Positions 43,406-55,490 of a stretch of 64,000 nucleotides of DNA are shown piece by piece. The notes below the pieces were generated by a model. That model was given only the letters and a program-made list of their open reading frames with translations, did not search any database and had not been told where the DNA came from. Made by a program: the position numbers and the translations under genes. The stretch covers positions 2,976,001 through 3,040,000 of the forward strand of contig CAVWLP010000002.1 in NCBI GenBank assembly GCA_963755915.1, given 5' to 3'. This DNA comes from an uncultured Phycisphaerales bacterium (GTDB lineage: Bacteria; Planctomycetota; Phycisphaerae; Tepidisphaerales; Tepidisphaeraceae). Numbering within the stretch: the stretch's first letter is position 1; each line of letters opens with the position of its first letter.

Positions 43406-43465
43406 GGCCTCATAATAAATCGGTCCGATTTGTGCTGTGCTTTATTTCCAAAAACCGCCCCCCGC

Positions 43466-43494
43466 TTGAAGGGCGGCGGGTGTCGCGATACCAT
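43466..43494 (+). promoter_or_regulatory. Original host tRNA-Val promoter (TTGAAG-N17-TACCAT)
   Basis: -35 at 43466-71, -10 at 43489-94, 11 nt before the tRNA 5' fragment. Confidence 0.75.
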
Positions 43495-43504
43495 CAAAAA
43501 GCCT

Positions 43505-43527
43505 CGGGCGATTAGCTCAGTTGGCCA
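43505..43527 (+). repeat. attL: 23-bp direct repeat (5' 22 nt of tRNA-Val plus one preceding base)
   Basis: CGGGCGATTAGCTCAGTTGGCCA, identical to 55040-55062. Confidence 0.95.
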
Positions 43528-43714
43528 ACACACGGCAAATGTAAGCGGGGGCGACTCCAAGCAGTTACAATCCACTGATGTTGCGAGCGCAGCATATTTG
43601 ACAGCAGTTGGTCCGGATCAGGGACTCGCAATCGTCTGCGAACGCTGGACAGCCCTACCGGCGATCTTGCGAAAAGTAATCGTGGCAATGGTCGAGGCAG
43701 CCGTGGAAAAGTAA
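43505..43714 (+). other. Displaced 3' end of the integrase gene (in frame with the att core)
   Basis: Reads RAISSVGQ (same as integrase aa 458-465), then HTANV...DQGLAIVCERWTALPAILRKVIVAMVEAAVEK*. Confidence 0.85.
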
Positions 43715-43736
43715 CAGCACATTGCAGTCCTATCGG

Positions 43737-44057
43737 TCAGGGAGATAGTTTAGCCGTGCTCTTTCCGGCGAGCTCGACACCGGCCTTCGAAAGGATTTCT
43801 GCTACTTCACGGGCGTTCTTCAAAATGACTCTGTTCTCATCAGTATCGGTAAGCCCAAAATTCTCAGGCTTCGCCCCCACAGCAACTAAACAGTGCTTTA
43901 ATAGCACCTGTTCCTGATGTCCTACACCGAAGATAGCCAATTCGTTGCTCTTTTGCGAAAACTGGATTTGACCGCCGTAATAGTTCAATACCTCGATCGC
44001 AGTATTCACCGAGATTTTGCCACCACGCAACTTGCTCTTCCCGCCCCAGCCTGACAA
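43737..44057 (-). CDS. Hypothetical cargo protein (106 aa)
   Basis: TTG start preceded by GAGGA; lower GC; no recognisable motif. Confidence 0.55.
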   Translation of the reverse strand: MSGWGGKSKLRGGKISVNTAIEVLNYYGGQIQFSQKSNELAIFGVGHQEQVLLKHCLVAVGAKPENFGLTDTDENRVILKNAREVAEILSKAGVELAGKSTAKLSP

Positions 44058-44364
44058 TCAATCCTCAAATGCAATCAATATACCGTGCTTAGCAACTATA
44101 AAACTACACGTGGTGAATGTAAAGACAAATCGATTTCCACAAATAAGTTAAATACCGGCCCAAATCAGTAATCCGCGCTTGCGTCAAAGATTTGAAGTAT
44201 TCTGGTCACTAGGCTTGGGTGGCCAAATACCTTCGATACTTCCCGTGTCTTGGTGACCACGGTGCGTTAGAAGGAGTTTGAGGCTGTGTGCCTCTCATCT
44301 GGCAAGTATGTGAGACGCCGCCGTCGCCAGCGTTTTGGGCGCGCTCGGCGGCGGAGTTTCGATA

Positions 44365-44560
44365 GACCTTTTAAGTATAAGAAAGAGGAACCACTTAACA
44401 CTTTGATTTATATAAACCGCGACGGACAGTTTTTGTCCGAAAACGGACAATTTGTGGTTTTCGACGGCCAAAAAACCGTTGCAATATTGGCCAAATAGTG
44501 ACAGGGTGCTGGTAGTTCCTGACCAAAAAAGCGGGGGTAAGATGGCCGAAAACGGACAAA
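44365..44560. promoter_or_regulatory. Putative replication origin/operator region of the element
   Basis: AT-rich tract 44369-44417, inverted repeat CGGACA..TGTCCG, 14-bp direct repeat CCGAAAACGGACAA (44437-50, 44546-59). Confidence 0.45.
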
Positions 44561-45162
44561 CATCGCGAGCGGAAACGAATCAGGTCGCCACGAAACGTGG
44601 GCTTCCGGTTTACCGCGTCAATCCCAGCATCCCGCCGTCGAATGGCTTGGCAACGCGACAGAAGCGTTTTGAAGTGCCAGGCGGCAAAGCTGCCGTCATC
44701 GTGGACAACGGCACCGGCGAAATCAAAGGCATCGGCGGCATGGGTTTCTGGTGGCAAGAGGAAGTGGATGCCAGCCGGTTCGTGAAACTGTTTCTGGATG
44801 GCATCAAGCAAGCCTGCGGGCTTTCCAAATCCGGCATGGCGGTCTTTGAATTGGTGTACCACCAAATCAGGGAAAATCCCGGCAATGACAAGATCGAACT
44901 GAGCCAATACATGGCACAGGATCGCGGCCTGAATGAACGAACCTTCCGCCGGGGCCTGCGGGAATTGCTCGAAAAGGAATTCTTGTACCGCAGCACCAGC
45001 GACGGCGTTTTCTTCATCAACATCCGGTTCATGTTCAACGGCGACCGGCTCGCGTTCGTGCGGACGTACCATTTGAAAGGTGCGAGCCGCCAACAGGAAT
45101 TGCCGCTTGGCGATGCCCCCGCGTTGCCCGGTCCAACCGTGCGCGAGCCGACGGGCGACTGA
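44542..45162 (+). CDS. RepL-like plasmid replication protein
   Basis: 'Y..NP', 'EVD...FVKLF..GI', wHTH 'TF.RGL.EL.EKEFL', 'FIN..F.FNGDR'. Confidence 0.75.
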   Translation: MAENGQTSRAETNQVATKRGLPVYRVNPSIPPSNGLATRQKRFEVPGGKAAVIVDNGTGEIKGIGGMGFWWQEEVDASRFVKLFLDGIKQACGLSKSGMAVFELVYHQIRENPGNDKIELSQYMAQDRGLNERTFRRGLRELLEKEFLYRSTSDGVFFINIRFMFNGDRLAFVRTYHLKGASRQQELPLGDAPALPGPTVREPTGD

Positions 45163-45206
45163 ACGCTACGTCGTCGCAATTGATTTGCGCGTTACAATTC
45201 CACCCG

Positions 45207-45781
45207 ATGAAACGTTTCCGTCGAGGGCTATTCAACGGGGTGGCCGGGATCTCGCTGGTCCTTTCTCTCGCCGGGGCGGCATATGGGCACGCAGTTACAG
45301 TTACGCCGAAGACCTCATCTATTACGGACACTCCGGGGGCGTCGCCATGCACGACGCGAAAGGCCGACTCGCGTTCGTATTCGAAAATGTGATGTCGATG
45401 AGCCCGCATTTTGAGTATTACTCTTCGACGCCCGTTCGCGGACTCGATTACGCGGACCCCCGGAGGACCCCTACGCTGTGGAACCGTCTGGGCTTCTACA
45501 TCGTTCGATTCACCAGAGCGCGCGATATCCAGAAGATGACTCCTCCACCGGGCATGAGTTGGCCGCCGGTGGTTCGGTACACCGACGTCGTCGTCCCCTT
45601 CTGGCTCGTGCTTCTGGTGCTGGCATTGCTGCCTTTCTGGAACTTCGTGCTGCCTATTCTCCGGGGCGCCCGCCTCCAGCCGGGCTATTGCGCGAAATGC
45701 GGCTACGATCTTCGCGCCACGCCCGACCGTTGCCCAGAGTGCGGGACAATCCCGCCGAAAAAGGAAATCATTTCAAGCTAA
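45207..45781 (+). CDS. Membrane protein with C-terminal zinc ribbon (frameshift ~45280)
   Basis: MKRFRRGLFN...WARSY; TM 'VPFWLVLLVLALLP'; CAKCGYDLRATPDRCPECG. Confidence 0.75.
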
Positions 45782-45819
45782 ACGAATCGCCGCAATTGCG
45801 GAAAATCGGAAAATCGCAT

Positions 45820-46053
45820 TTACGACGGCGTTCCGCCGGGCGGGAATCGTTTTTCCAGCAAGTCGCGGACGACATCCGCCATGATGAGGTTTTCAATCGC
45901 ACACTGGCTCTTGATTCGCTTATGCAGGCCCAGCGGCACGTCGATGGTAAGCCGCTTCATTGGCTGGCCCGCATTCTTGTCGTTAATCCATTCATCCGGC
46001 GATAGTCGTGCGGGCGATCCGGCGGGTTTGGAGCGAAAGGCAACTTTCTTCAT
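45820..46053 (-). CDS. ParG-like ribbon-helix-helix partition protein
   Basis: 'MKRLTIDVP..LHKRIK..CA.....MADVVRDLL'; overlaps the parA stop. Confidence 0.82.
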   Translation of the reverse strand: MKKVAFRSKPAGSPARLSPDEWINDKNAGQPMKRLTIDVPLGLHKRIKSQCAIENLIMADVVRDLLEKRFPPGGTPS

Positions 46054-46679
46054 GCCCCAAACTCCAAAACTTCGTTTACGAGCGCGGTTAACTCATCCCC
46101 TGCCTGGCTGTCGGGTGATGTCTCGAAAACGCTCTGGCCATGCCCTGCCGACTCGGCAAATGCCACTCGCTGGCAGATTGCGGATTTCAACACCGGCACC
46201 GGGTATTCAGCCAACGCGTCCACCACGTCGCGGCCCAACGCCGTATTTACGATTTTACGATTAATTACAAATGCCGATTTCAGGCCGGGCTTGAATACCA
46301 TCGCCTCCTGCAACAGGTCCACGATTTCCTTCGCGGCCCACACGTCGTAAGGCGACGGCTGCACAGGAATCAATACAACATCGCTGGCCATGATGGCCGA
46401 CCGGGCGACTTCGTACACCCGTGGCGGACCATCGATCAGAACATGCTCATAGCCCTGGGCCAACGCGGGCAATTCCTTGTGGATGGATGACCGGGGCAAT
46501 CCAGCCACGGGAAACAGCGGATCGCTATTTCGTGACGCCGCCCAATCGAGTGCCGAACCTTGCGGGTCGGCATCGACCAGCAACACCTTTTTCTTGCGTC
46601 GGGCCAGTGCATCGGCGATGTGAACGGCCAGCGTCGTTTTGCCGACGCCGCCCTTCTGATTCAGTAGTCCGATGATCAT
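46050..46679 (-). CDS. parA: ParA-family (type Ib) partition ATPase
   Basis: 'NQKGGVGKTT', 'VDADPQGS', 'IDGPP', 'PVQPSPYD'. Confidence 0.92.
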   Translation of the reverse strand: MIIGLLNQKGGVGKTTLAVHIADALARRKKKVLLVDADPQGSALDWAASRNSDPLFPVAGLPRSSIHKELPALAQGYEHVLIDGPPRVYEVARSAIMASDVVLIPVQPSPYDVWAAKEIVDLLQEAMVFKPGLKSAFVINRKIVNTALGRDVVDALAEYPVPVLKSAICQRVAFAESAGHGQSVFETSPDSQAGDELTALVNEVLEFGA

Positions 46680-46782
46680 ATTTTCACCGTGAAATTCGCG
46701 ATTGGGCGGAATTGCGATTTCACGGTTATCACGAATTGCGGAAGTGCGCAAATACAGAATTGCAGATTTACGATTTACAGGA
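46680..46782. repeat. Degenerate 8-bp repeat array upstream of parA (putative centromere/operator)
   Basis: cggaattg, cgatttca, (a)cgaattg, cggaagtg, cagaattg, cagattta, cgatttac; similar units at 45781-45825. Confidence 0.6.
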
Positions 46783-47036
46783 GTTTCCCGGGGAAATTCC
46801 TCCTTAGCAGTGCTAAGGGAAGATGTCTGTGGGTACTCAAGAATTTTCCACTCATTATGTCTAAACGGGGCCATGGGTTCCGAAGGGCATCTCGAATCGG
46901 TGCGAATCCGCCACAAATCGGTTGCCGACACATGAAATAATCCGCTCTTTCAAGCCAATAGATGGTAGGTGGCTGGCGTGCATCGGCACACCTCTGGTTT
47001 AACGATTTGTAAAGCAATCTTGGGGTAAACTGGCAG

Positions 47037-49673
47037 ATGCTTCGCATCATTCAAAGCAATTCCGCTGCCGGGGCCATGAGCTATTACAGCACGGCGGACT
47101 ATTACAGCGAGGGCCAAGAGCTACTCGGCCAATGGCGCGGGCAGGGTGCCGAACGGCTTGGCCTGACCGGCGGCATCGACAAGGCGGCGTGGGACGCCCT
47201 GTGCGATAACCGCGACCCGGCAACGGGGCTGCCTCTTACGGCCCGCCGCAATCAGGATCGTACCGTCGGCTATGATTTCAATTTCCACGTCCCCAAGAGC
47301 GTGTCTGTGCTCTACGGTCTGACACGGGATGATCGCATCCTCGATGCATTCCAAGCGTCCGTCGATGAGACGATGCGGGATATCGAGCGCGATATGAAAA
47401 CCCGCGTGCGGGTGAACGGTAAGAACGAAGAACGCACGACCGGCAATATGGGCTGGGGCGAGTTCACGCATTTCACGTCGCGGCCCGTGGACGGCGTACC
47501 TGATCCCCACCTCCACGCCCATTGCTTCGTTTTCAATGCGACGTTCGACGAAAGCGAAGATCGTTGGAAGGCGGGTCAGTTCCGGGAACTCAAGCGTGAC
47601 GCTCCTTTCTTTGAGGCCGCGTTTCATTCTCGGTTCGCCCGGCGAATGGAGGAATTGGGCCTTGAGGTCGAGCGAACGAAAGCCGGATGGGAGTTGGCCG
47701 ATATGCCCAAATCAGTCCTCAAAACCTTTTCCCGCCGAACGGCCCAGATTGAGCAAACGGCGAAAGAGGCGGGCATTACAAATCCGGCGGATAAAGATTC
47801 CCTCGGTGCCCGGACGCGGGAAAGCAAAAAGAAGGATATGCCGTTTTCGGAACTACAGGCCGAATGGCGGTCCCGGTTGCCCGTCGAGGATCAGGACGCC
47901 ATTAACCGCGTTGCGGCAAGCATCGGTGGTCCGGCATTGCCGGAAGATCCCACGCTCGGCAAAGAGGCGGTGACGTTCGCCGCCAATCACTGGTTCGAGC
48001 GCAATTCGGTCGTACCGGAGCGAACGGTGTTGGCAAAGGCACTGAAGCACGGGGTAGGGAAGGCGAGTTTGCAATCGGTGGAGTCCGCCTTTCGGAAACA
48101 CGATCTGGTCTTCGGCGAGCGGGATGGCCGGAAATTGGTTACGTCCAATGACGTGCTGATGGAAGAATCGCGGATGCTGAAATTTGCCCGCGATGGACGG
48201 GGCACGTGTCCACGGCTATACGACGGGCCGCATTCCTTCAACGATGCCAAGCTCAACGCCGGGCAATGTCGGGCGGTTGAGCATGTGCTGAATTCCTCCG
48301 ACCGGGTCATCATCGTCAACGGCGCTGCCGGCGTCGGCAAAACCACAATGATGCGTGAAGCGGTGGCCGGTATCGAAATCGGCGGCAGCAAAGTTTTCAC
48401 CTTCGCCCCTTCTGCCGACGCCAGTCGCGGGGTGCTCGCCCAAGAGGGATTTGAGAATGCCGACACGGTTGCCCGGCTCCTCGTCGATGAGAAATTGCAG
48501 CAACAAATCAGGGATCAAGTTATCTGGATCGATGAGGCCGGTCTGATTGGAACCAAAACTATGGGCCGGGTATTCGACTTGGCCGACAAACTGGATGCCC
48601 GTGTAATCCTCTCCGGCGACCGCAGGCAACATGGATCGGTGGAACATGGTGCGGCACTGCGTTTGCTCGAAACTGAGGCCGGGTGCCTTCCCGCTGAAAT
48701 CAGGGACATTCAACGGCAAAAAGGGGAATACAAACAGGCCGTGCAATCGCTTAGCGATGGCCGCACCGAAAAGGGATTCCAGCAACTCGACCATTTGGGC
48801 TGGATTAAAGAGGTTCCCGAAGGCGAACGGTACAAGGCCCTGGCCGATGAATACGTTGCGACCGTCGCCGCCGGGAAATCAGCTCTGGTTGTCAGCCCTA
48901 CGCATTCTGAAGGCGAGCGGATTACGGGTCACATCCGCGAATCGCTCAAAGATTTGGGACGGGTGAATACGGATGAACGCGAGGTTTCGATTCTGGAAAG
49001 ATCGAACCTGACGCAAGCGGAGCGTGGCGACGCGGTGAATTACGCTCCCGGCGACGTGCTGGTGTTTCAGCAGAACGGCAAGGGATACCGCAAGGGCGAG
49101 CGAATCGTAGCCGGAGAGGGTGCGTTGCCGCTCGATCAGGCAAGCAAATTTCAGAAGTATCGCACCCGAAAGATCGCAATTGCTGAGGGTGATCTCCTCC
49201 GCGTCACGCAAAATGGGAAAACCGCCGATGGCAAGCACCGGCTCAATAACGGCGCGCAATATGTGGTGGAGGGATTCACCCGCCAAGGCGACATCCGGCT
49301 CAACAATGGGTGGACCATCGACAAAAACTTCGGGCATCTGGATTATGGGTACGTCGTCACGAGCCATGTGAGCCAGGGCAAGACGGTGGATCGCGTTTTC
49401 ATCGGGCAATCGTCCGAATCGTTCCCCGCGTCATCGCGGGAGCAATTCTACGTGTCCGTCTCGCGTGCCCGGCAGCAGGCGACGATTTACACCGATGACA
49501 AGGAATCGCTGCTCGATGCGGTGAGCCGTTCCGATGATAGGATAACGGCGACGGAATTCGTCATGGATCGGGGCTATCATGCACGCGGGATGCACATTCA
49601 GCGGATCGCGGCGATGACGCCCGCACGGGATGAACGCACGCCAACACGCGAGGGGATCGAATATGACAGATAA
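47037..49673 (+). CDS. MOBF (TrwC/TraI-like) relaxase-helicase
   Basis: 'YY..ADYY', 'GYDFNF..PKSVS', 'H.TSR....PDPHLHAH', 'FSRRT', Walker A GAAGVGKT, 'IDEAG', 'SQGKTVD'. Confidence 0.93.
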   Translation: MLRIIQSNSAAGAMSYYSTADYYSEGQELLGQWRGQGAERLGLTGGIDKAAWDALCDNRDPATGLPLTARRNQDRTVGYDFNFHVPKSVSVLYGLTRDDRILDAFQASVDETMRDIERDMKTRVRVNGKNEERTTGNMGWGEFTHFTSRPVDGVPDPHLHAHCFVFNATFDESEDRWKAGQFRELKRDAPFFEAAFHSRFARRMEELGLEVERTKAGWELADMPKSVLKTFSRRTAQIEQTAKEAGITNPADKDSLGARTRESKKKDMPFSELQAEWRSRLPVEDQDAINRVAASIGGPALPEDPTLGKEAVTFAANHWFERNSVVPERTVLAKALKHGVGKASLQSVESAFRKHDLVFGERDGRKLVTSNDVLMEESRMLKFARDGRGTCPRLYDGPHSFNDAKLNAGQCRAVEHVLNSSDRVIIVNGAAGVGKTTMMREAVAGIEIGGSKVFTFAPSADASRGVLAQEGFENADTVARLLVDEKLQQQIRDQVIWIDEAGLIGTKTMGRVFDLADKLDARVILSGDRRQHGSVEHGAALRLLETEAGCLPAEIRDIQRQKGEYKQAVQSLSDGRTEKGFQQLDHLGWIKEVPEGERYKALADEYVATVAAGKSALVVSPTHSEGERITGHIRESLKDLGRVNTDEREVSILERSNLTQAERGDAVNYAPGDVLVFQQNGKGYRKGERIVAGEGALPLDQASKFQKYRTRKIAIAEGDLLRVTQNGKTADGKHRLNNGAQYVVEGFTRQGDIRLNNGWTIDKNFGHLDYGYVVTSHVSQGKTVDRVFIGQSSESFPASSREQFYVSVSRARQQATIYTDDKESLLDAVSRSDDRITATEFVMDRGYHARGMHIQRIAAMTPARDERTPTREGIEYDR

Positions 49674-50076
49674 GTTTCTGCATCATCGCCCCGGGCGTGT
49701 GCTTGACGACAGATTTGATTCGGGCCCGTCAGCGGATTCCGGCGGTGTCGATGATTTTCATTCGTTTGGCTGGCTACGCGGTATTCGCGAGCGGGCCACA
49801 ATGCTCGAGCTGCGGAAGAAATCGGGCGATGTCCTGGCCATTGGCTATAGCTGGATTGAGTGTGTGGAATTCAATCCAACCCAAGGGATTACGTTGCACG
49901 TTCATGGCGACAAGATTCACATCAAAGGCCGCAATCTGAACGCCGAAGTCCGGCCCGAAGTTCGACTGTTTCAAGGAATCGCCCGTCACCGCGTGGCATG
50001 GGTGCAGGAAGCGGACAGGCCGCGAAACCTGACGGGGGACAAGCAACTGACGATTATTGACCAAATCGCCTGGTGA
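49663..50076 (+). CDS. Hypothetical protein translationally coupled to the relaxase
   Basis: Start overlaps the relaxase end, with SD GAGGGG; 137 aa. Confidence 0.7.
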   Translation: MTDKFLHHRPGRVLDDRFDSGPSADSGGVDDFHSFGWLRGIRERATMLELRKKSGDVLAIGYSWIECVEFNPTQGITLHVHGDKIHIKGRNLNAEVRPEVRLFQGIARHRVAWVQEADRPRNLTGDKQLTIIDQIAW

Positions 50077-50160
50077 CGCTTGATCAAGCCTCAGCCAAAT
50101 CTTGTCGATGCCAATAAATGATAAGAGTTCCGCGTTCGTGGTTATCAACCGGATTTAGAA

Positions 50161-50670
50161 ATGTGGTTACCCAAGGACGAACGGCGTTTGCTTGCCGGTT
50201 ACTTCAAGATAATTGGCGAAATTGATAAGGAACGCATTTATCGCGAATCTGATCTAATTCCTCTACTGTGGTGGCGACAAAAGATTGAATCCATCAAGAC
50301 ATATCGAGAATCAGTAGGCAGGTCGGATGGTTCGGCCAGCATGGAAAATATGACGGCGTTCAAGCGCGAGGTCAAACAGCTACTCGCCGATATGGCACGG
50401 ATAAAGAGAGCCAACAAGTTGTTGGTCGCCCGGAAGATGGTGGCGATTCGACCACATGCCCACGAGCAGAATGTCATCCTAATTTCATTGACCGTTAAGG
50501 GATTCGACTTTGGAAGGCGATATGGCAATTGACTAGATTCAACGGGACTTTGGTTTGCCTATTACAAGAATCACTGGATTTGGCTAATTGTGGCTGCCGT
50601 CGCGGGCGGCATTATTCCGAAATTAATTGATCGTATCGGAGCGATTATTGCCGCCTTGCACCGACCGTAG
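50161..50670 (+). pseudogene. Cargo membrane protein interrupted by in-frame TGA (50530-32)
   Basis: After ...GRRYGN*, the same frame continues LDSTGLWFAYYKNHWIWLIVAAVAGGIIPKL...HRP* (a TM helix). Confidence 0.55.
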
Positions 50671-51297
50671 CTAGACCCCGTGTCCATGAATGAGCCGCCG
50701 CACAGAAGTTCTCCCAATACCGAGCCGTTTGGCGATCTGGCTCTTGCTGATTCCCGAAAGAAACAGCTTGTTTGCCTCATCCGCAAGTGCTGTCACTGTC
50801 GCGGGTCTTCCGTGCGGCTTCCCGTTCTTCCTGGCCTCTGCGATTCCGGCTTTGACGCGATCCCGCAGGATGTCACGCTCGTATTGTGCAAACACTGCCA
50901 GCATCCCGGCCATTGCCTGGCCGCTCGGTGTCGTGAAATCCAACGAATCGTTCGGCGAAACAAAATTGACGCCCACTGCGTGCAATTCCTTCAATGTCGT
51001 CACAAGGTCGAGCAACGAACGGCCCCAGCGATCCAGCTTCCAGACCAGGACGATATCAATCTCCCGTCGCATTGCAGCGTGCAGCACTTCATTCCTTGCC
51101 GGACGATCTTTCGCCCCGGACCCGACTTCCTCAATCTGCATGGCGACAGTCCAGCCCCGTCGCTCGGCGTATTCCCGCATCGCCGAAATTTGCAGCGGCA
51201 ATGTCTGCTGGTCGTGGGTCGAAACACGTGCGTACAACCCGACGCGTAAACGGTCGCCTGCCCCCTGGCCAAAAACCTCCCCCCGATTTTCGGTCAT
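50671..51297 (-). CDS. Serine resolvase/invertase
   Basis: 'YARVST.DQ', 'VWKLDRWGRS', 'GRP', C-terminal HTH. Confidence 0.93.
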   Translation of the reverse strand: MTENRGEVFGQGAGDRLRVGLYARVSTHDQQTLPLQISAMREYAERRGWTVAMQIEEVGSGAKDRPARNEVLHAAMRREIDIVLVWKLDRWGRSLLDLVTTLKELHAVGVNFVSPNDSLDFTTPSGQAMAGMLAVFAQYERDILRDRVKAGIAEARKNGKPHGRPATVTALADEANKLFLSGISKSQIAKRLGIGRTSVRRLIHGHGV

Positions 51298-51299
51298 GC

Positions 51300-51410
51300 C
51301 CCCTCGATAATTCAACTGCTTGCAGAAAACCCTTTACACCGGCCAAAAACTATAGTTTATGGTCAGGTCAGGACGTATCACGATTCAGCAAAAGGGACAA
51401 GAGAAATTCT
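51300..51410. promoter_or_regulatory. Putative res site / divergent promoter region
   Basis: Imperfect dyad ggccaaaaac-tata-gtttatggtc between the resolvase and WGR genes. Confidence 0.45.
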
Positions 51411-51416
51411 CGCCGC

Positions 51417-51857
51417 ATGGAAAACCTGCTCACGATTGCACTGGAAGCCCATAACAATGATCTCAATCATCACCGCCGCTATGAAATTACCGTCGGTCGG
51501 GATTTGCTGGACGATTGGACGCTGAGCATCCGCTACGGTCGCGTCGGCGGCGGATATCAAACGCAAAAGTTTTCCGGGAAAGACAAGCATCAAATCCGTG
51601 CTATCATTCGGGAACGGTTACGGCGTAGGCGATCCGCCCCAAAACGGATTGGATGTGCATACCGGGTAACGACATTCGACGCTGTTGCGGAATTCGACAC
51701 ATCCGCATGGTTGCCGAATGATTCGATTGTCTTTCTTCCTGACCCACCATTTTCCCTGACCCCGATGGTGGACAAAATTGCTTTCAGCGGAGCGAAGCGG
51801 GGTCAAGGTGGAACCGTCGGAGAAGAGGCTCCATGTACTCATGGAGTAGCACCTTGA
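51417..51857 (+). CDS. WGR-domain-like protein
   Basis: 'N..RRYEI.V..DLL.DW.L...YGRVG'. Confidence 0.75.
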   Translation: MENLLTIALEAHNNDLNHHRRYEITVGRDLLDDWTLSIRYGRVGGGYQTQKFSGKDKHQIRAIIRERLRRRRSAPKRIGCAYRVTTFDAVAEFDTSAWLPNDSIVFLPDPPFSLTPMVDKIAFSGAKRGQGGTVGEEAPCTHGVAP

Positions 51858-51969
51858 GGCCGATTCGTGGAGCGTACAATGTCGGAATTGGGGGCAGGGA
51901 AAGCTTGCCCTAGAAATCGCTCCTCCCTCAGAAATAATTGCTCTACGCTTTTAATCAACTTCTGCTGGA

Positions 51970-52422
51970 TCACTTACGCGGGTCGAACGGAACCGGCCTA
52001 CCACATTTTTCACAGAAGCGTGATTCGGGGTGAAAATTGAATGGAAACGCGTGAACCATGGTGGAGTTTTCAGTCAGGACCGCCATGACTCCACTGCATG
52101 TTGATGCAAACACACCATTGTTGTACTGCATTCCTGTTGTGCTACCCGCGAAAAGGATAAGGTTCTTGCGTCCCCAGTCGTCAATTTCAAGACATCCAGA
52201 CGCCATTGCTGACACCATGTGATGTTGATAGCTGTTCCAAGTCGAATTAAGGAATACCGAGTTGATCGAATAAATCTCAGTTGGGACGGTATGTTTTACA
52301 TATTTTTCCAACTGGTAGTCGTAGGGATATTTGCCTCCTGCATTGGCCTCAAGCGTTGAAGAATCGACGGGCACTATGAGACCTGAATTCCGTGCGCATT
52401 CATGGCAATAATATTTAGACAT
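51970..52422 (-). CDS. Hypothetical cargo protein with terminal CxxC pairs
   Basis: 150 aa, low GC; CHEC at the N-terminus, CEKC at the C-terminus. Confidence 0.7.
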   Translation of the reverse strand: MSKYYCHECARNSGLIVPVDSSTLEANAGGKYPYDYQLEKYVKHTVPTEIYSINSVFLNSTWNSYQHHMVSAMASGCLEIDDWGRKNLILFAGSTTGMQYNNGVFASTCSGVMAVLTENSTMVHAFPFNFHPESRFCEKCGRPVPFDPRK

Positions 52423-52520
52423 GGCGAAGGTGGTTTTGTAACACGCCGCCGCTAACAGGCTGCCCGTGCAGTTATCCGAGCACCTAACTCTATCGGCTGG
52501 ACCGCAAAAATAGCAAATAC

Positions 52521-52859
52521 TTACGGCATTTCTTCCCGAAGTTTGTTTTGCCAGTCCTGGGCGGTATGGAAGACGTGCAGGATATGGACCTCTTTATCGT
52601 CGAAATTGTAGACGGCCACATGGCCATGCCCGCTGGTCCTCCGCCTGATGACGACATAACGCAAATCGGGCCGTGTGCTGACTTTCTTGCCCCTGGCATA
52701 GCTGCTGGCCAGACCGGCGATGCTTTCCTTTAGATACCGGAGATAAGCATCGGCATGGGGGACGCCGTAACGTCCAGCGTTCCATCGCCAAACATCGTCG
52801 AGTTCATCAATCGCCGTCGGGGAGCGAATGACCGTCAGCGGGGATTGTTCCGAAGCCAT
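52521..52859 (-). CDS. ParE/RelE-family toxin
   Basis: 'SPTA..ELDDVW.WNA..YG..HADAY', 'H...Y......V.ILHVFH..QD'. Confidence 0.85.
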   Translation of the reverse strand: MASEQSPLTVIRSPTAIDELDDVWRWNAGRYGVPHADAYLRYLKESIAGLASSYARGKKVSTRPDLRYVVIRRRTSGHGHVAVYNFDDKEVHILHVFHTAQDWQNKLREEMP

Positions 52860-53113
52860 TCCGCCCTACGTTTCGCAAGTTCCGCGTCCGCTTGGTCTGC
52901 CGTATAGAAATTCCCGGCTTTGATTTCCGCTTCCGCCTTGTCAATGTGGGCAAGCCGTTCGGGCGTGAAAAGATGGTCGAGGTTTTCGGTTCCCTCGTGA
53001 AGATCATAGCTCAAAACGTCGGCGATGTATTCGTCAACGGTCGAGAACCCGGCTTCCGTCGCCCGGCGTTGGACCTCTTTGTAAAGATGATCGTTGAGTT
53101 GGACTTGTTGCAT
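52835..53113 (-). CDS. Cognate antitoxin (RHH-like N-terminus)
   Basis: Small acidic ORF immediately upstream of and overlapping the toxin. Confidence 0.75.
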   Translation of the reverse strand: MQQVQLNDHLYKEVQRRATEAGFSTVDEYIADVLSYDLHEGTENLDHLFTPERLAHIDKAEAEIKAGNFYTADQADAELAKRRAEWLRNNPR

Positions 53114-53417
53114 AGGCAATCTTTCTGAACGGCTGTCCGACATTATAACGGCATTTGAGGCCGATTGTCATTGAGAAATTGGCCCCTGGCATTGCAGGAT
53201 TCGACCCGAACAGGCACACGCCGCGTTGCGGCGGCCGGAGATTTGCCGGTCTATTCAGGTCGCTTGAAGATTTTTGGTGAAAGATTTCGGCCCTTTGACG
53301 CAAATAGTCTTAGGGTGTGTTCTGCGGCCACGGGCAGCGTCCGACCCCATTGTACAGTCAATGGAAATAAGGCCGCGCGCTCCCGCGCGGTCGGTGTCGA
53401 ACAACGGAGATTTCACG

Positions 53418-53648
53418 ATGCAGATTCAAACAATCCAAACGCAAACGGAAAATCCTCCCGCTTTGCTGACTCTGGCGATGATCCGGCGATATTATGTTCC
53501 GATTGCTTCCCGCACCCTGTTCCGGCTGATTTCGTCGGGGCGATTCCCCAAGGCGGATATCGGCATCGGCGGGAAGCTGCGGCTATGGAAGCGTGAAACG
53601 GTTGAAGCGTGGATCGCGTCCAACGCGGTGCGGGTGGGCGTAGAATAG
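53418..53648 (+). CDS. AlpA/Xis-like excisionase (recombination directionality factor)
   Basis: 'IASRTLFRLISSGRFPK...GGKLRLWKRETVEAWI'; SD GGAGA; directly upstream of int. Confidence 0.85.
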   Translation: MQIQTIQTQTENPPALLTLAMIRRYYVPIASRTLFRLISSGRFPKADIGIGGKLRLWKRETVEAWIASNAVRVGVE

Positions 53649-53668
53649 CGTGAAAGCGATGGTGCTTT

Positions 53669-55306
53669 ATGGCCAGTGTTTTCAAACGTGGCGGCAAGAA
53701 AAACCGCGAAGGAAAGTACGTCGCATCGTTCTTCGATGAGAATGGGAAGCGTGTCAGCCGAAGCACGGGCACGACGGATTACGATGCCGCTTGCCAGGTT
53801 GCGGCACGATGGGACACCGACGTTGCCCTGCGGCGCCATGGCGTGATTGACGCGACGCAAGCCCGCATCGCCGATCAGAACCGGCAGCATATCAGGGAGC
53901 ATGTCGCCGATTATCTGGCCCATTGCAGGCATGTCGGGCAGGACAAAGCCCACATTGCCATCAAAACATCGCAGTTGGCCAAGCTCGTGGCTGGAATCAA
54001 CGCAACCCGGCTGTCCGATCTTGAGCCGAACCGGGTAGAGCGCTATCTGGCCAATCTGGTGACAGCGGGCAAATCACACAGAACGCACAACCAAAATCGG
54101 GCCACGGCAGTCGCGTTCATGCAATGGTGTTTCGAGCAAGGGCGAGTAGCGTCCAACTTGCTGAAAATCGTCCCGACGCTCAATGAAGCCAAGGATCGAA
54201 GACGTGTGCGGCGGGCGTTGAGCGAAGATGAATTGTCCCGACTGCTCGCGGTATCCGATGAACGTCGGCCCTACTACCTGTTTGCCTATTACACCGGCTT
54301 GCGGGTCAAGGCCGTCAAAGCCGCTATGTGGGGCGACGTGGATTTCGACAGTGCTTTGATTCGCGTAAAAGTCGGCAACGCCAAGGGCAAAAAGGATGAC
54401 ATTTATCAGCCTTTGCATCCCCGATTGCTGCAAGAATTGCGGCGGATGAGAAGTGAAATGCCGTTTGCATCCCAGGCTGATCCGATTTTTCCCGGTGTGC
54501 CGCTGGTCAAGACGTTTCACCGGGATTGCCAGCGGGCCGGAATCGAGCGATATGACGCGGACGGCAGGCAACTGGACCGTCATGCCCTCCGCACCACGCT
54601 CGGCACTCACCTGGCCCGTGCGGGCGTTCTGCCGCAACTGGCGATGAAGGTGATGGGCCACAACGACGTGCAGACCACGATGAAGCATTACACGGCGTTA
54701 CGTCTGGCGGACACGGCCAAGGCGATGAACGCTCTGCCGTCCATCGAACCGAACGCCAATGCGAATGCCGCGGCCCTGCGGGCGACGGGAACGGACCCGG
54801 CTAATGTGCCGTCAAATTTGTCGGGTTTCGGCGCACAGCATGTTCGACAGCAGTTGTGCGGCTCGGATACGCAAAATCTGACACCCACTGTCGCTGATAG
54901 CGAAACGACAAAATCGTCCGCACAAAAAACTGTGGTGTTCATTTCGCCCCAGAAAAACAGGGGTTTTGGCGATATTCAGCAGCGTGCGACAGCCATCGAC
55001 TTGAAGGAAATCGCCGCTCGCGATACCATCGAAAAAGTACGGGCGATTAGCTCAGTTGGCCAGAGCGTACGGATCACACCCGTGAGGTCACAGGTTCGAG
55101 CCCTGTATCGCCCATTTCCACTTCTTCGCACTGCGTCGCATTATCTCGCACAGAGTCGCAAGGCCCCGCAAGCGTGGGACTTACGGAATCTTCGCCGGAA
55201 CTGGGTGCGATATCCTGCGACGCCTTGCGAGCAGATGCTGCACCGGATTCTGCACCGCCTGTCTCAGACGCTGCTTCCGCCGCCTTTGCAAAATGCTCAT
55301 CGGTGA
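53669..55306 (+). CDS. Tyrosine integrase (integrated form, reads through attR and the tRNA)
   Basis: N-terminal arm-binding-like domain; TGLR, HALR, MGH, HY catalytic motifs. Confidence 0.93.
   Translation: MASVFKRGGKKNREGKYVASFFDENGKRVSRSTGTTDYDAACQVAARWDTDVALRRHGVIDATQARIADQNRQHIREHVADYLAHCRHVGQDKAHIAIKTSQLAKLVAGINATRLSDLEPNRVERYLANLVTAGKSHRTHNQNRATAVAFMQWCFEQGRVASNLLKIVPTLNEAKDRRRVRRALSEDELSRLLAVSDERRPYYLFAYYTGLRVKAVKAAMWGDVDFDSALIRVKVGNAKGKKDDIYQPLHPRLLQELRRMRSEMPFASQADPIFPGVPLVKTFHRDCQRAGIERYDADGRQLDRHALRTTLGTHLARAGVLPQLAMKVMGHNDVQTTMKHYTALRLADTAKAMNALPSIEPNANANAAALRATGTDPANVPSNLSGFGAQHVRQQLCGSDTQNLTPTVADSETTKSSAQKTVVFISPQKNRGFGDIQQRATAIDLKEIAARDTIEKVRAISSVGQSVRITPVRSQVRALYRPFPLLRTASHYLAQSRKAPQAWDLRNLRRNWVRYPATPCEQMLHRILHRLSQTLLPPPLQNAHR
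54833..54856 (+). repeat. Putative integrase arm-type site (partner at 43587-43610)
   Basis: gcacagcatgttcgacagcagttg vs gcgcagcatatttgacagcagttg, 21/24 identical. Confidence 0.7.
55001..55029 (+). promoter_or_regulatory. Element-encoded replacement tRNA promoter (TTGAAG-N17-TACCAT) inside int
   Basis: Same -35, -10, 17-nt spacer and 11-nt distance to the tRNA as at 43466-43494. Confidence 0.8.
55041..55114 (+). tRNA. tRNA-Val(CAC)
   Basis: Acceptor GGGCGAT/ATCGCCC, D-arm GCTC/GAGC, anticodon arm TACGG-AT CAC AC-CCGTG, T-arm ACAGG-TTCGAGC-CCTGT; CCA not encoded. Confidence 0.95.
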
Positions 55307-55490
55307 TCTGCAGGTAGTGATCGCGCGCTACCACCTCGCTGTTGCCAATCCAGGCACACACCACGTGAGCAGGCCAGCTTTCCGTCAGTTCCGTCTGGCG
55401 TGAAGACCGAAGATTCTGAAAAAGCTTTGGTTACGGCTCGATCCCTGCCTTGGCAAGAATCCAGAGAAATTGTGTGCGAATGTTCATCTG
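55074..55490 (-). pseudogene. C-terminal remnant of a second tyrosine integrase, running antisense into the tRNA 3' end
   Basis: Manual translation: MNIRTQFLWILAKAGIEP*PKLFQNLRSSRQTELTESWPAHVVCAWIGNSEVVARDHYLQ...; in-frame TAA, N-terminus missing. Confidence 0.85.

Follow-up and report, generated by a model that had tools for sequence, protein, structure and literature searches.

The window analysed here is a stretch of 64,000 nt from an uncultured Phycisphaerales bacterium (assembly GCA_963755915.1, contig CAVWLP010000002.1, positions 2,976,001-3,040,000, + strand). In it, the 5' end of the gene for a valine transfer RNA (tRNA), tRNA-Val(CAC), has served as the insertion site of an integrative mobilizable element. 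The element is identified as such by a tyrosine integrase gene (int), a TrwC relaxase, the tRNA-Val and an exact 23-bp direct repeat, CGGGCGATTAGCTCAGTTGGCCA, whose two copies are the cores of the attachment (att) sites attL and attR; by an arithmetic estimate, about 1e-6 such repeat pairs would be expected by chance in a 14-kb stretch. From core to core the unit measures 11,535 bp. A Pfam scan given to 10 open reading frames (ORFs), which are part of those of the element, found no type IV secretion genes among them. The features are collected in Table 1.

The integrase gene is the one into which the attachment site falls. Its product matches PF00589 with 70.9 bits against a cut-off of 27.1, over amino acids (aa) 184-344, and it contains the sequences HALRTT and HY. 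In an alignment of 105 integrase sequences, R187, H329, R332 and Y365 (in the numbering of a relative, P0118) are invariant, and we take these to be the catalytic R, H-x-x-R and Y residues. The core lies about 115 codons beyond the complete catalytic domain, after a linker of aa 345-457, and is read as RAISSVGQ; the 80 residues that follow it are translated from the tRNA and the flanking DNA. At attL, the core is read in the same phase, again as RAISSVGQ, and is followed by 61 open codons that end in DQGLAIVCERWTALPAILRKVIVAMVEAAVEK with a stop at 43712-43714. Because the core sits inside the integrase ORF, the gene is cut upon integration. The chromosomal copy is a catalytically complete integrase with an arbitrary end made of tRNA and host flank, and recombination between the two ends, attL and attR, would restore the gene on the circle in a form of 526 aa, to judge from the in silico attP joint, which gives a single ORF of (1371 + 207)/3 = 526 codons. 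A first-pass annotation of the window had already placed attP inside the integrase, read as RAISSVGQ at aa 458-465, and had proposed both an integrated form of 545 aa, with its last 80 aa from tRNA and flank, and an 11,535-bp circle encoding 526 aa by way of 61 further codons at attL; its coordinates and lengths all proved correct.

Table 1. Features of the element, its ends and its target in the window
Feature	Position	Strand	Details
Tyrosine integrase, integrated form, 545 aa	53669..55306	+	catalytic domain aa 184-344, core aa 458-465
Detached integrase 3' end, 61 codons plus stop	43529..43714	+	in phase with core
Conserved tail hairpin (two helices)	43616..43708	+	motif D..L..V...W..LP...R..I.AMV.AA
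attL core	43505..43527	+	displaced copy, tRNA-Val positions 1-22 plus one upstream base
attR core	55040..55062	+	within integrase ORF; makes 5' end of intact tRNA
tRNA-Val(CAC), intact	55041..55114	+	integration target
Element body, 11,535-bp integrative mobilizable element	43528..55039		length taken core to core
Excisionase-like HTH_17 gene	53274..53648	+	immediately upstream of int; 23.5 bits, below Pfam cut-off 27
RepL-like replication protein	44452..45162	+	weak match, PF05732, 20.7 bits, cut-off 20.3
ParA-type partition ATPase	46050..46931	-	Pfam
TrwC-type relaxase with helicase domains	47037..49673	+	PF08751, 239 bits
Serine resolvase	50671..51315	-	PF00239, 146 bits
ParE toxin	52521-52859 (locus 52521..53143)	-	ParE, 47.2 bits
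Small ORF upstream of and overlapping ParE	52835-53143	-	presumed antitoxin, role inferred from position only
Native tRNA-Val upstream region left at attL	43466..43494	+	TTGAAG, 17 nt, TACCAT, end 11 nt before tRNA; putatively promoter-like
Element-borne TTGAAG-17-TACCAT copy in integrase coding sequence	55001..55029	+	11 nt before tRNA

The relatives of this integrase differ in the way they end. There are 412 homologues at E <= 1e-10, and the C-termini were compared among 120 listed ones. The C-terminus lies exactly at the translated start of a tRNA (RAISSVG, RAIGAVG, etc.) in 27 of these by regular expression and in 3 more by eye, and in many further listed homologues the last residues are translated from tRNA, in sense or in antisense. 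Four close relatives (78-100% identical) have different ends beyond the tRNA, and since relatives at 78-93% identity diverge after a shared reading of this tRNA, the integrated C-terminus is arbitrary. A contiguous tail is present in seven of the 120 (P0048, P0088, P0089, P0092, P0101, P0116 and P0118; 499-553 aa), and these seven tails have in common the motif D..L..V..AWP.LP..VR.GI.AMV.AA. A profile made from the seven contiguous tails alone gives the detached tail of the window a score of 34.1 bits (E 1.2e-9); when the window tail is shuffled 1000 times, the highest score with the same profile is 9.5 bits. By this measure of sequence similarity, the detached tail is a homologue of the contiguous tail that related integrases carry at their C-terminus.

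The same arrangement recurs elsewhere in the genome. The tail profile gives 6 matches in it at E <= 1e-5, and five of these have a family integrase on the same strand 7.7-16 kb downstream. All five pairs have an exact tRNA-derived repeat of 18-30 bp, a core within the integrase ORF, equal codon phase on both sides and a frame that stays open over the 59-63 codons between the core and the stop of the tail. The repeat is a sense 5' tRNA piece in three pairs and an antisense 3' piece in the other two.

For other genomes, a sample of 20 tails was taken from the profile matches in 401 genomes of the phylum, each with 20 kb of downstream DNA, the choice being made by E <= 1e-5 and by a position that suggested a long contig. 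Four of them were cut by contig ends, and a same-strand family integrase is present in 10 of the remaining 16. An exact repeat of 18-60 bp is found in nine of these 10 loci, and in all nine the core is inside the ORF, in phase and open. Taken with the five pairs of the present genome, all 14 pairs with a shared repeat are in phase (p ~2e-7 under random phase), and in all 14 the tRNA-derived core is inside the integrase ORF. Moreover, with the 83 tRNAs of this genome as the only probes, a tRNA fragment was found at most 300 nt upstream in 15 of 35 tails and in none of 65 control windows. The layout described for the window holds in related elements of many Planctomycetota, in different tRNA genes and at both tRNA ends.

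The tail is also found in a large number of short ORFs. When protein clusters formed at 50% identity are searched with the profile, 8,022 of their representatives match at E <= 1e-3, and the number is 517 at the stricter E <= 1e-10. Among the best 150 matches, 149 are only 35-234 aa long (median 76), with the motif at the C-end; many of these short ORFs have, at their start, a tRNA piece translated in the same frame, and their predicted starts are at varied places. In 401 genomes of the phylum there are 96 matches, which are spread over 61 genomes (58 of 288 genera), and 95 of the 96 lie in open frames of at most 316 aa. The remaining frame, of 468 aa, runs antisense to an LpxB gene and lacks any match to an integrase. 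No tail is joined to a whole integrase in any of these 96 matches or in the best 80 loci from GTDB species genomes, 77 of which have Planctomycetota-type labels. The first-pass annotation had described the tail motif as common in short Planctomycete ORFs and had proposed that these are displaced integrase tails; both ideas are borne out by the counts given above, and the search with a tail profile did bring up homologues tied to tRNA fragments and to distant integrases in frame.

Three of the 80 loci (L117, L120 and L136), on contigs of metagenome-assembled genomes (MAGs), are labelled Myxococcaceae, beta proteobacterium and Leptolyngbya, and here either mis-binning or a spread outside the Planctomycetota is possible. 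Six database ORFs (P0124, P0126, P0127, P0129, P0131 and P0149) contain two tandem tail motifs and may be stacked remnants of successive integrations. In viral contigs there are 24 relatives of the integrase, with a tail match within 4 kb in none of the 17 examined, and this collection is uninformative.

That the tail is kept as a protein is suggested by the way in which its codons vary. An alignment of 35 genomic tails gives, for 30 columns, nucleotide diversities of 0.43, 0.32 and 0.61 at the first, second and third codon positions, respectively. W, L, P and A columns are invariant in the tail alignments; the invariant Leu is coded by CTG, CTA, CTT, CTC and TTG, and the conserved Pro by four codons. 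Because third codon positions vary most, selection acts on the translated tail protein and not on arm-type DNA sites. A GAESGA-like motif between core and tail was dropped as a feature of the family since it occurs in only 6 of 35 loci.

The structure predictions agree with the compact helical tail that had been proposed from the sequence. In the AlphaFold2 model, residues 31-38 and 45-60 of the tail are helical, with a predicted local distance difference test (pLDDT) value above 90, and the first 30 of the 61 residues are disordered. In the full-length relative P0118, the prediction gives an N-terminal module of three strands plus a helix, helical and catalytic domains that end at residue 379, then disorder over residues 380-500 (pLDDT 35-60), where the translated core falls, and the hairpin helices at 503-531; the disorder of the window linker, aa 345-457, is taken from the corresponding stretch of this predicted relative. 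A near-invariant A-T-G-T motif is present about 25 residues past the catalytic Tyr (LRATGTD, at about 54779-54799 in the window); it falls in the stretch predicted to be disordered in P0118, and its third codon positions vary.

No Pfam or NCBIfam family covers the tail, a single-sequence search of its 61 aa against a set of 5.8 billion proteins for longer proteins gave nothing at E <= 10, and Foldseek found no match to the tail model in the PDB. A complex prediction for two copies of the tail scored 0.31 against a mark of 0.42, which has no bearing on self-association either way. A protein atlas links the tail, at a score of 0.91, to unnamed Planctomycetota clusters only, a pointer rather than a test.

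A probable reading of all this is that integration severs a conserved tail from the integrase and that the circle restores it, the tail serving to promote or regulate integration or to act in the stability of the integrase or its assembly on attP. Since the integrated integrase is without the tail, excision would be the work of a tail-less enzyme, probably together with the excisionase-like protein encoded upstream; of nine related elements examined, four (L048, L050, L053 and L064) have a clear HTH_17 gene upstream of int. Because excision would use the tail-less enzyme, selection on the tail would act via the full-length protein of the excised element. By analogy with phage Mx8, the most likely function of the tail would be in the integrative reaction, which it might promote or regulate, or in the stability or assembly on attP of the integrase, and its loss on integration might damp further recombination, as is reported for the IntP and IntX forms of Mx8 integrase. 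In addition, the location of the core in a linker predicted to be disordered may allow the family to switch its tRNA target without damage to the enzyme; many tRNA targets and both polarities would be tolerated because the core sits there.

A more far-reaching version of this is possible and is put forward only tentatively. The hairpin could be a detachable, integration-specific module, and the gene, which is rewritten by its own product in each reaction, could be a heritable record of the free or integrated state, the free form being fully competent and the integrated form being damped and in need of help to excise. If this were true, a self-editing switch would be standard in thousands of Planctomycete mobile elements, and the disordered linker would be a free slot for tRNA retargeting.

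The replacement of the tRNA 5' end might also involve the DNA beside the core. The similarity between the two ends of the element continues upstream of the core, to a length of 74 nt at 76% identity, with the exact blocks TTGAAGG and TCGCGATACCATC, a feature that the first-pass annotation had not mentioned. An element that takes over the 5' end of a tRNA gene would need its own copy of the tRNA promoter, and the TTGAAG-17-TACCAT copy inside the integrase coding sequence (Table 1) may, from its sequence and position, replace the displaced one. The -35-like block that precedes the displaced tRNA start overlaps with a terminator-like hairpin followed by a T run, on the - strand at 43459-43473 of the window.

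Several observations weigh against the idea of a tail that is severed and restored. In the contigs of four soil metagenome runs, attL and attR are bridged and no attP or attB joint was found, metagenome contigs being prone to lose rare variants. Contiguous integrase-tail proteins are few, at seven of the 120 listed, on contigs of 1.9-6.9 kb, where the assembler may have run through the repeated core, so that they would not represent real circles. One metagenome contig, L195 (11,354 nt), has int, a tRNA-derived core and the tail colinear and frame-shifted; similarly, a MAG contig, L156 (6,035 nt), has int, core and tail colinear as in attP, with shifted frames. In these two cases, the frame shift could be a sequencing error, decay or a programmed shift. 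In L214, the tail is contiguous with a C-terminal integrase fragment only, and the L214 and L195 contigs (among 80 metagenome tail loci) have no terminal overlap that would mark a circle. Incomplete loci count on the same side: the sixth tail of the present genome (C2:3575386-3575487, - strand) has no tRNA piece and no repeat partner, L054 among the 10 integrase-bearing loci has no repeat of at least 11 bp, and 6 of the 16 full loci have no integrase within 20 kb. As for the promoter-like blocks, neither TTGAAG-17-TACCAT copy was flagged by a consensus promoter scanner (the attL copy because it matches 8 of 12 consensus positions and the threshold is 9), and a loose form of the motif precedes 3 of the 83 tRNAs of the genome and 5 of 5000 random sites, so that support for a promoter is weak. 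Finally, a regulatory role for the tail is plausible, and this plausibility comes from logic and from the analogy with Mx8.

The sixth tail match lies in a frame of 114 aa, at its C-end, and the N-terminal part of this frame is hydrophobic. Its pairing with the minus-strand integrase at C2:3566748-3568110 was considered and rejected, as the two share no repeat of at least 10 bp and no tRNA-Val piece is present.

One alternative is that the layout is real and has no regulatory meaning: attP lies near int, the ORF crosses it by chance, and the tail brings a modest general benefit such as solubility or weak self-association, so that the full-length and truncated integrases would differ little in behaviour. 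In its favour, excision must proceed without the tail, the linker of P0118 is predicted to be disordered, and the HTH_17 genes upstream of int, clear in the four elements named above and weak in the window, could set directionality as they usually do. Against this, the tail is the best-conserved stretch past the catalytic domain and is under selection at the protein level, and, with a variety of tRNA cores, all 14 pairs preserve both the phase and the open frame; in Mx8, moreover, the behaviour of the integrase is modified by integration, according to an excerpt of PMC6070905. For these reasons, a layout devoid of regulatory meaning is considered unlikely. A quite different possibility would be that each tail ORF is a small gene in its own right, located at the distal end of its element and no part of the integrase, and that the contiguous integrase-tail proteins are fusions or assembly chimeras. 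Such a view could appeal to the shortness of 149 of the best 150 profile matches, to the lack of any junction with a whole integrase in the 96 genomic matches and 80 GTDB loci, and to the one tail of this genome that has no partner. However, independent genes need neither a fixed phase with the att core nor an open frame from it, yet both exist in 14 of 14 pairs; the starts of the short ORFs are varied, many of them being in translated tRNA pieces, a tRNA fragment lies directly upstream in 15 of 35 tails, and the tail is at a near-constant 52-97 codons past the core. Independent genes are therefore very improbable.

It could also be argued that conservation downstream of the core is at the level of the DNA, in the form of arm-type sites for the integrase or sites for host factors, with the amino-acid motif as a by-product. 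The arms of attP must flank the core and hence overlap the region that codes for the tail, and the N-terminal module of three strands plus a helix predicted in P0118 is of the kind that binds arm sites. This explanation is nevertheless scarcely credible given that third codon positions are the most variable (0.61 versus 0.32 at position 2), that conserved residues are coded by four to five synonymous codons, and that AlphaFold2 predicts the helical hairpin with confidence. The preferred reading thus remains that of an integrase tail which is severed on integration and which the circle would restore.

A second integrase is found at the target itself. On the - strand of the window, at 55074-55364, there is a 96-aa C-terminal remnant of a different tyrosine integrase, which contains HYLQITDEHF and ends in MGDTGLEPVTSRV, and for which Pfam gives no match. 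In antisense, it runs into the element's target tRNA-Val from the 3' end, and integrase genes therefore read into this tRNA from both sides. Full-length copies of the remnant integrase are present in this genome at C2:3566748-3568110 and near C2:3646330-3646815.

The practical consequences of the layout concern both annotation and experiment. In Planctomycete genomes and metagenomes, a large class of short hypothetical ORFs would be explained as detached ends of integrase genes. Where a match to the tail profile follows an in-phase tRNA fragment, it would mark the end of an element opposite to the one at which the integrase runs into the intact tRNA, a rule that could give island-finding programs precise boundaries in a phylum with little-studied mobile elements. 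Furthermore, the self-regulation of an integrase by the editing of its own gene would become testable with simple constructs. A literature search, made without supplementary files and with few subscription journals, found no paper describing this planctomycete integrase family.

The choice of target has precedents. The 5' part of a tRNA gene is the less frequent polarity (Zhao and Williams 2002, as cited in PMC6563490). In the window, as in the elements of this kind described there, it is the 5' end of the tRNA gene that is replaced. The present integrase family differs in using both polarities, and its integrase always reads into the intact tRNA.

An attachment site within a coding sequence is also known from the mycobacteriophages BPs and Brujita, where, in the excerpt of PMC3694055, attP is in the repressor gene, the C-termini of the free and integrated forms differ, and the end removed is a degradation tag. 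The likeness lies in the fact that the free and integrated genomes make different C-termini from a coding sequence that contains attP. The difference is that the repressor is split there and the integrase here, no repressor spanning the core in the window. Nor is a degradation tag evident in the present tails, the extreme C-termini of which vary.

Integration of the archaeal SSV type parts the N-terminal portion of the integrase from its catalytic portion and so breaks the enzyme. Here, by contrast, the catalytic domain at aa 184-344 is intact, and all of it precedes the core at aa 458. What the two systems share is an att site inside the integrase gene, the integrated copy of SSV1-type elements being split, according to PMC4383910. 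This precedent, together with that of Mx8, had been named in the first-pass annotation, and both are indeed in print (in excerpts of PMC4383910 and PMC6070905).

In the case of the Myxococcus phage Mx8, integration gives int a new 3' end and changes the behaviour of the integrase (PMC6070905). The IntP/IntX system resembles the present one in that the attP core is within the coding sequence of a tyrosine integrase, after the catalytic domain, in that the target is a tRNA gene, in that a new 3' end is acquired, and in that the gene immediately before int (uoi in the Mx8 record) is excisionase-like; the Mx8 protein itself, of 533 residues, contains the sequence STGLEPV, translated from an antisense tRNA piece, near residue 415. 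The primary papers on Mx8, by Tojo et al. in 1996 and Magrini et al. in 1999, are said to describe the prophage form as less active. The tail of Mx8 integrase is different, being about 110 aa long and having no match to the tail profile at E <= 10, and the protein is 22% identical to P0118 by BLASTP, in the N-terminal half only. Mx8 is, moreover, a single phage lineage, whereas the family described here is large, belongs mostly to non-phage elements, has one conserved 30-aa hairpin, and targets both the 5' and 3' ends of many tRNAs. What had been a curiosity of a single phage would thereby become a family-wide rule with a defined and conserved protein module.

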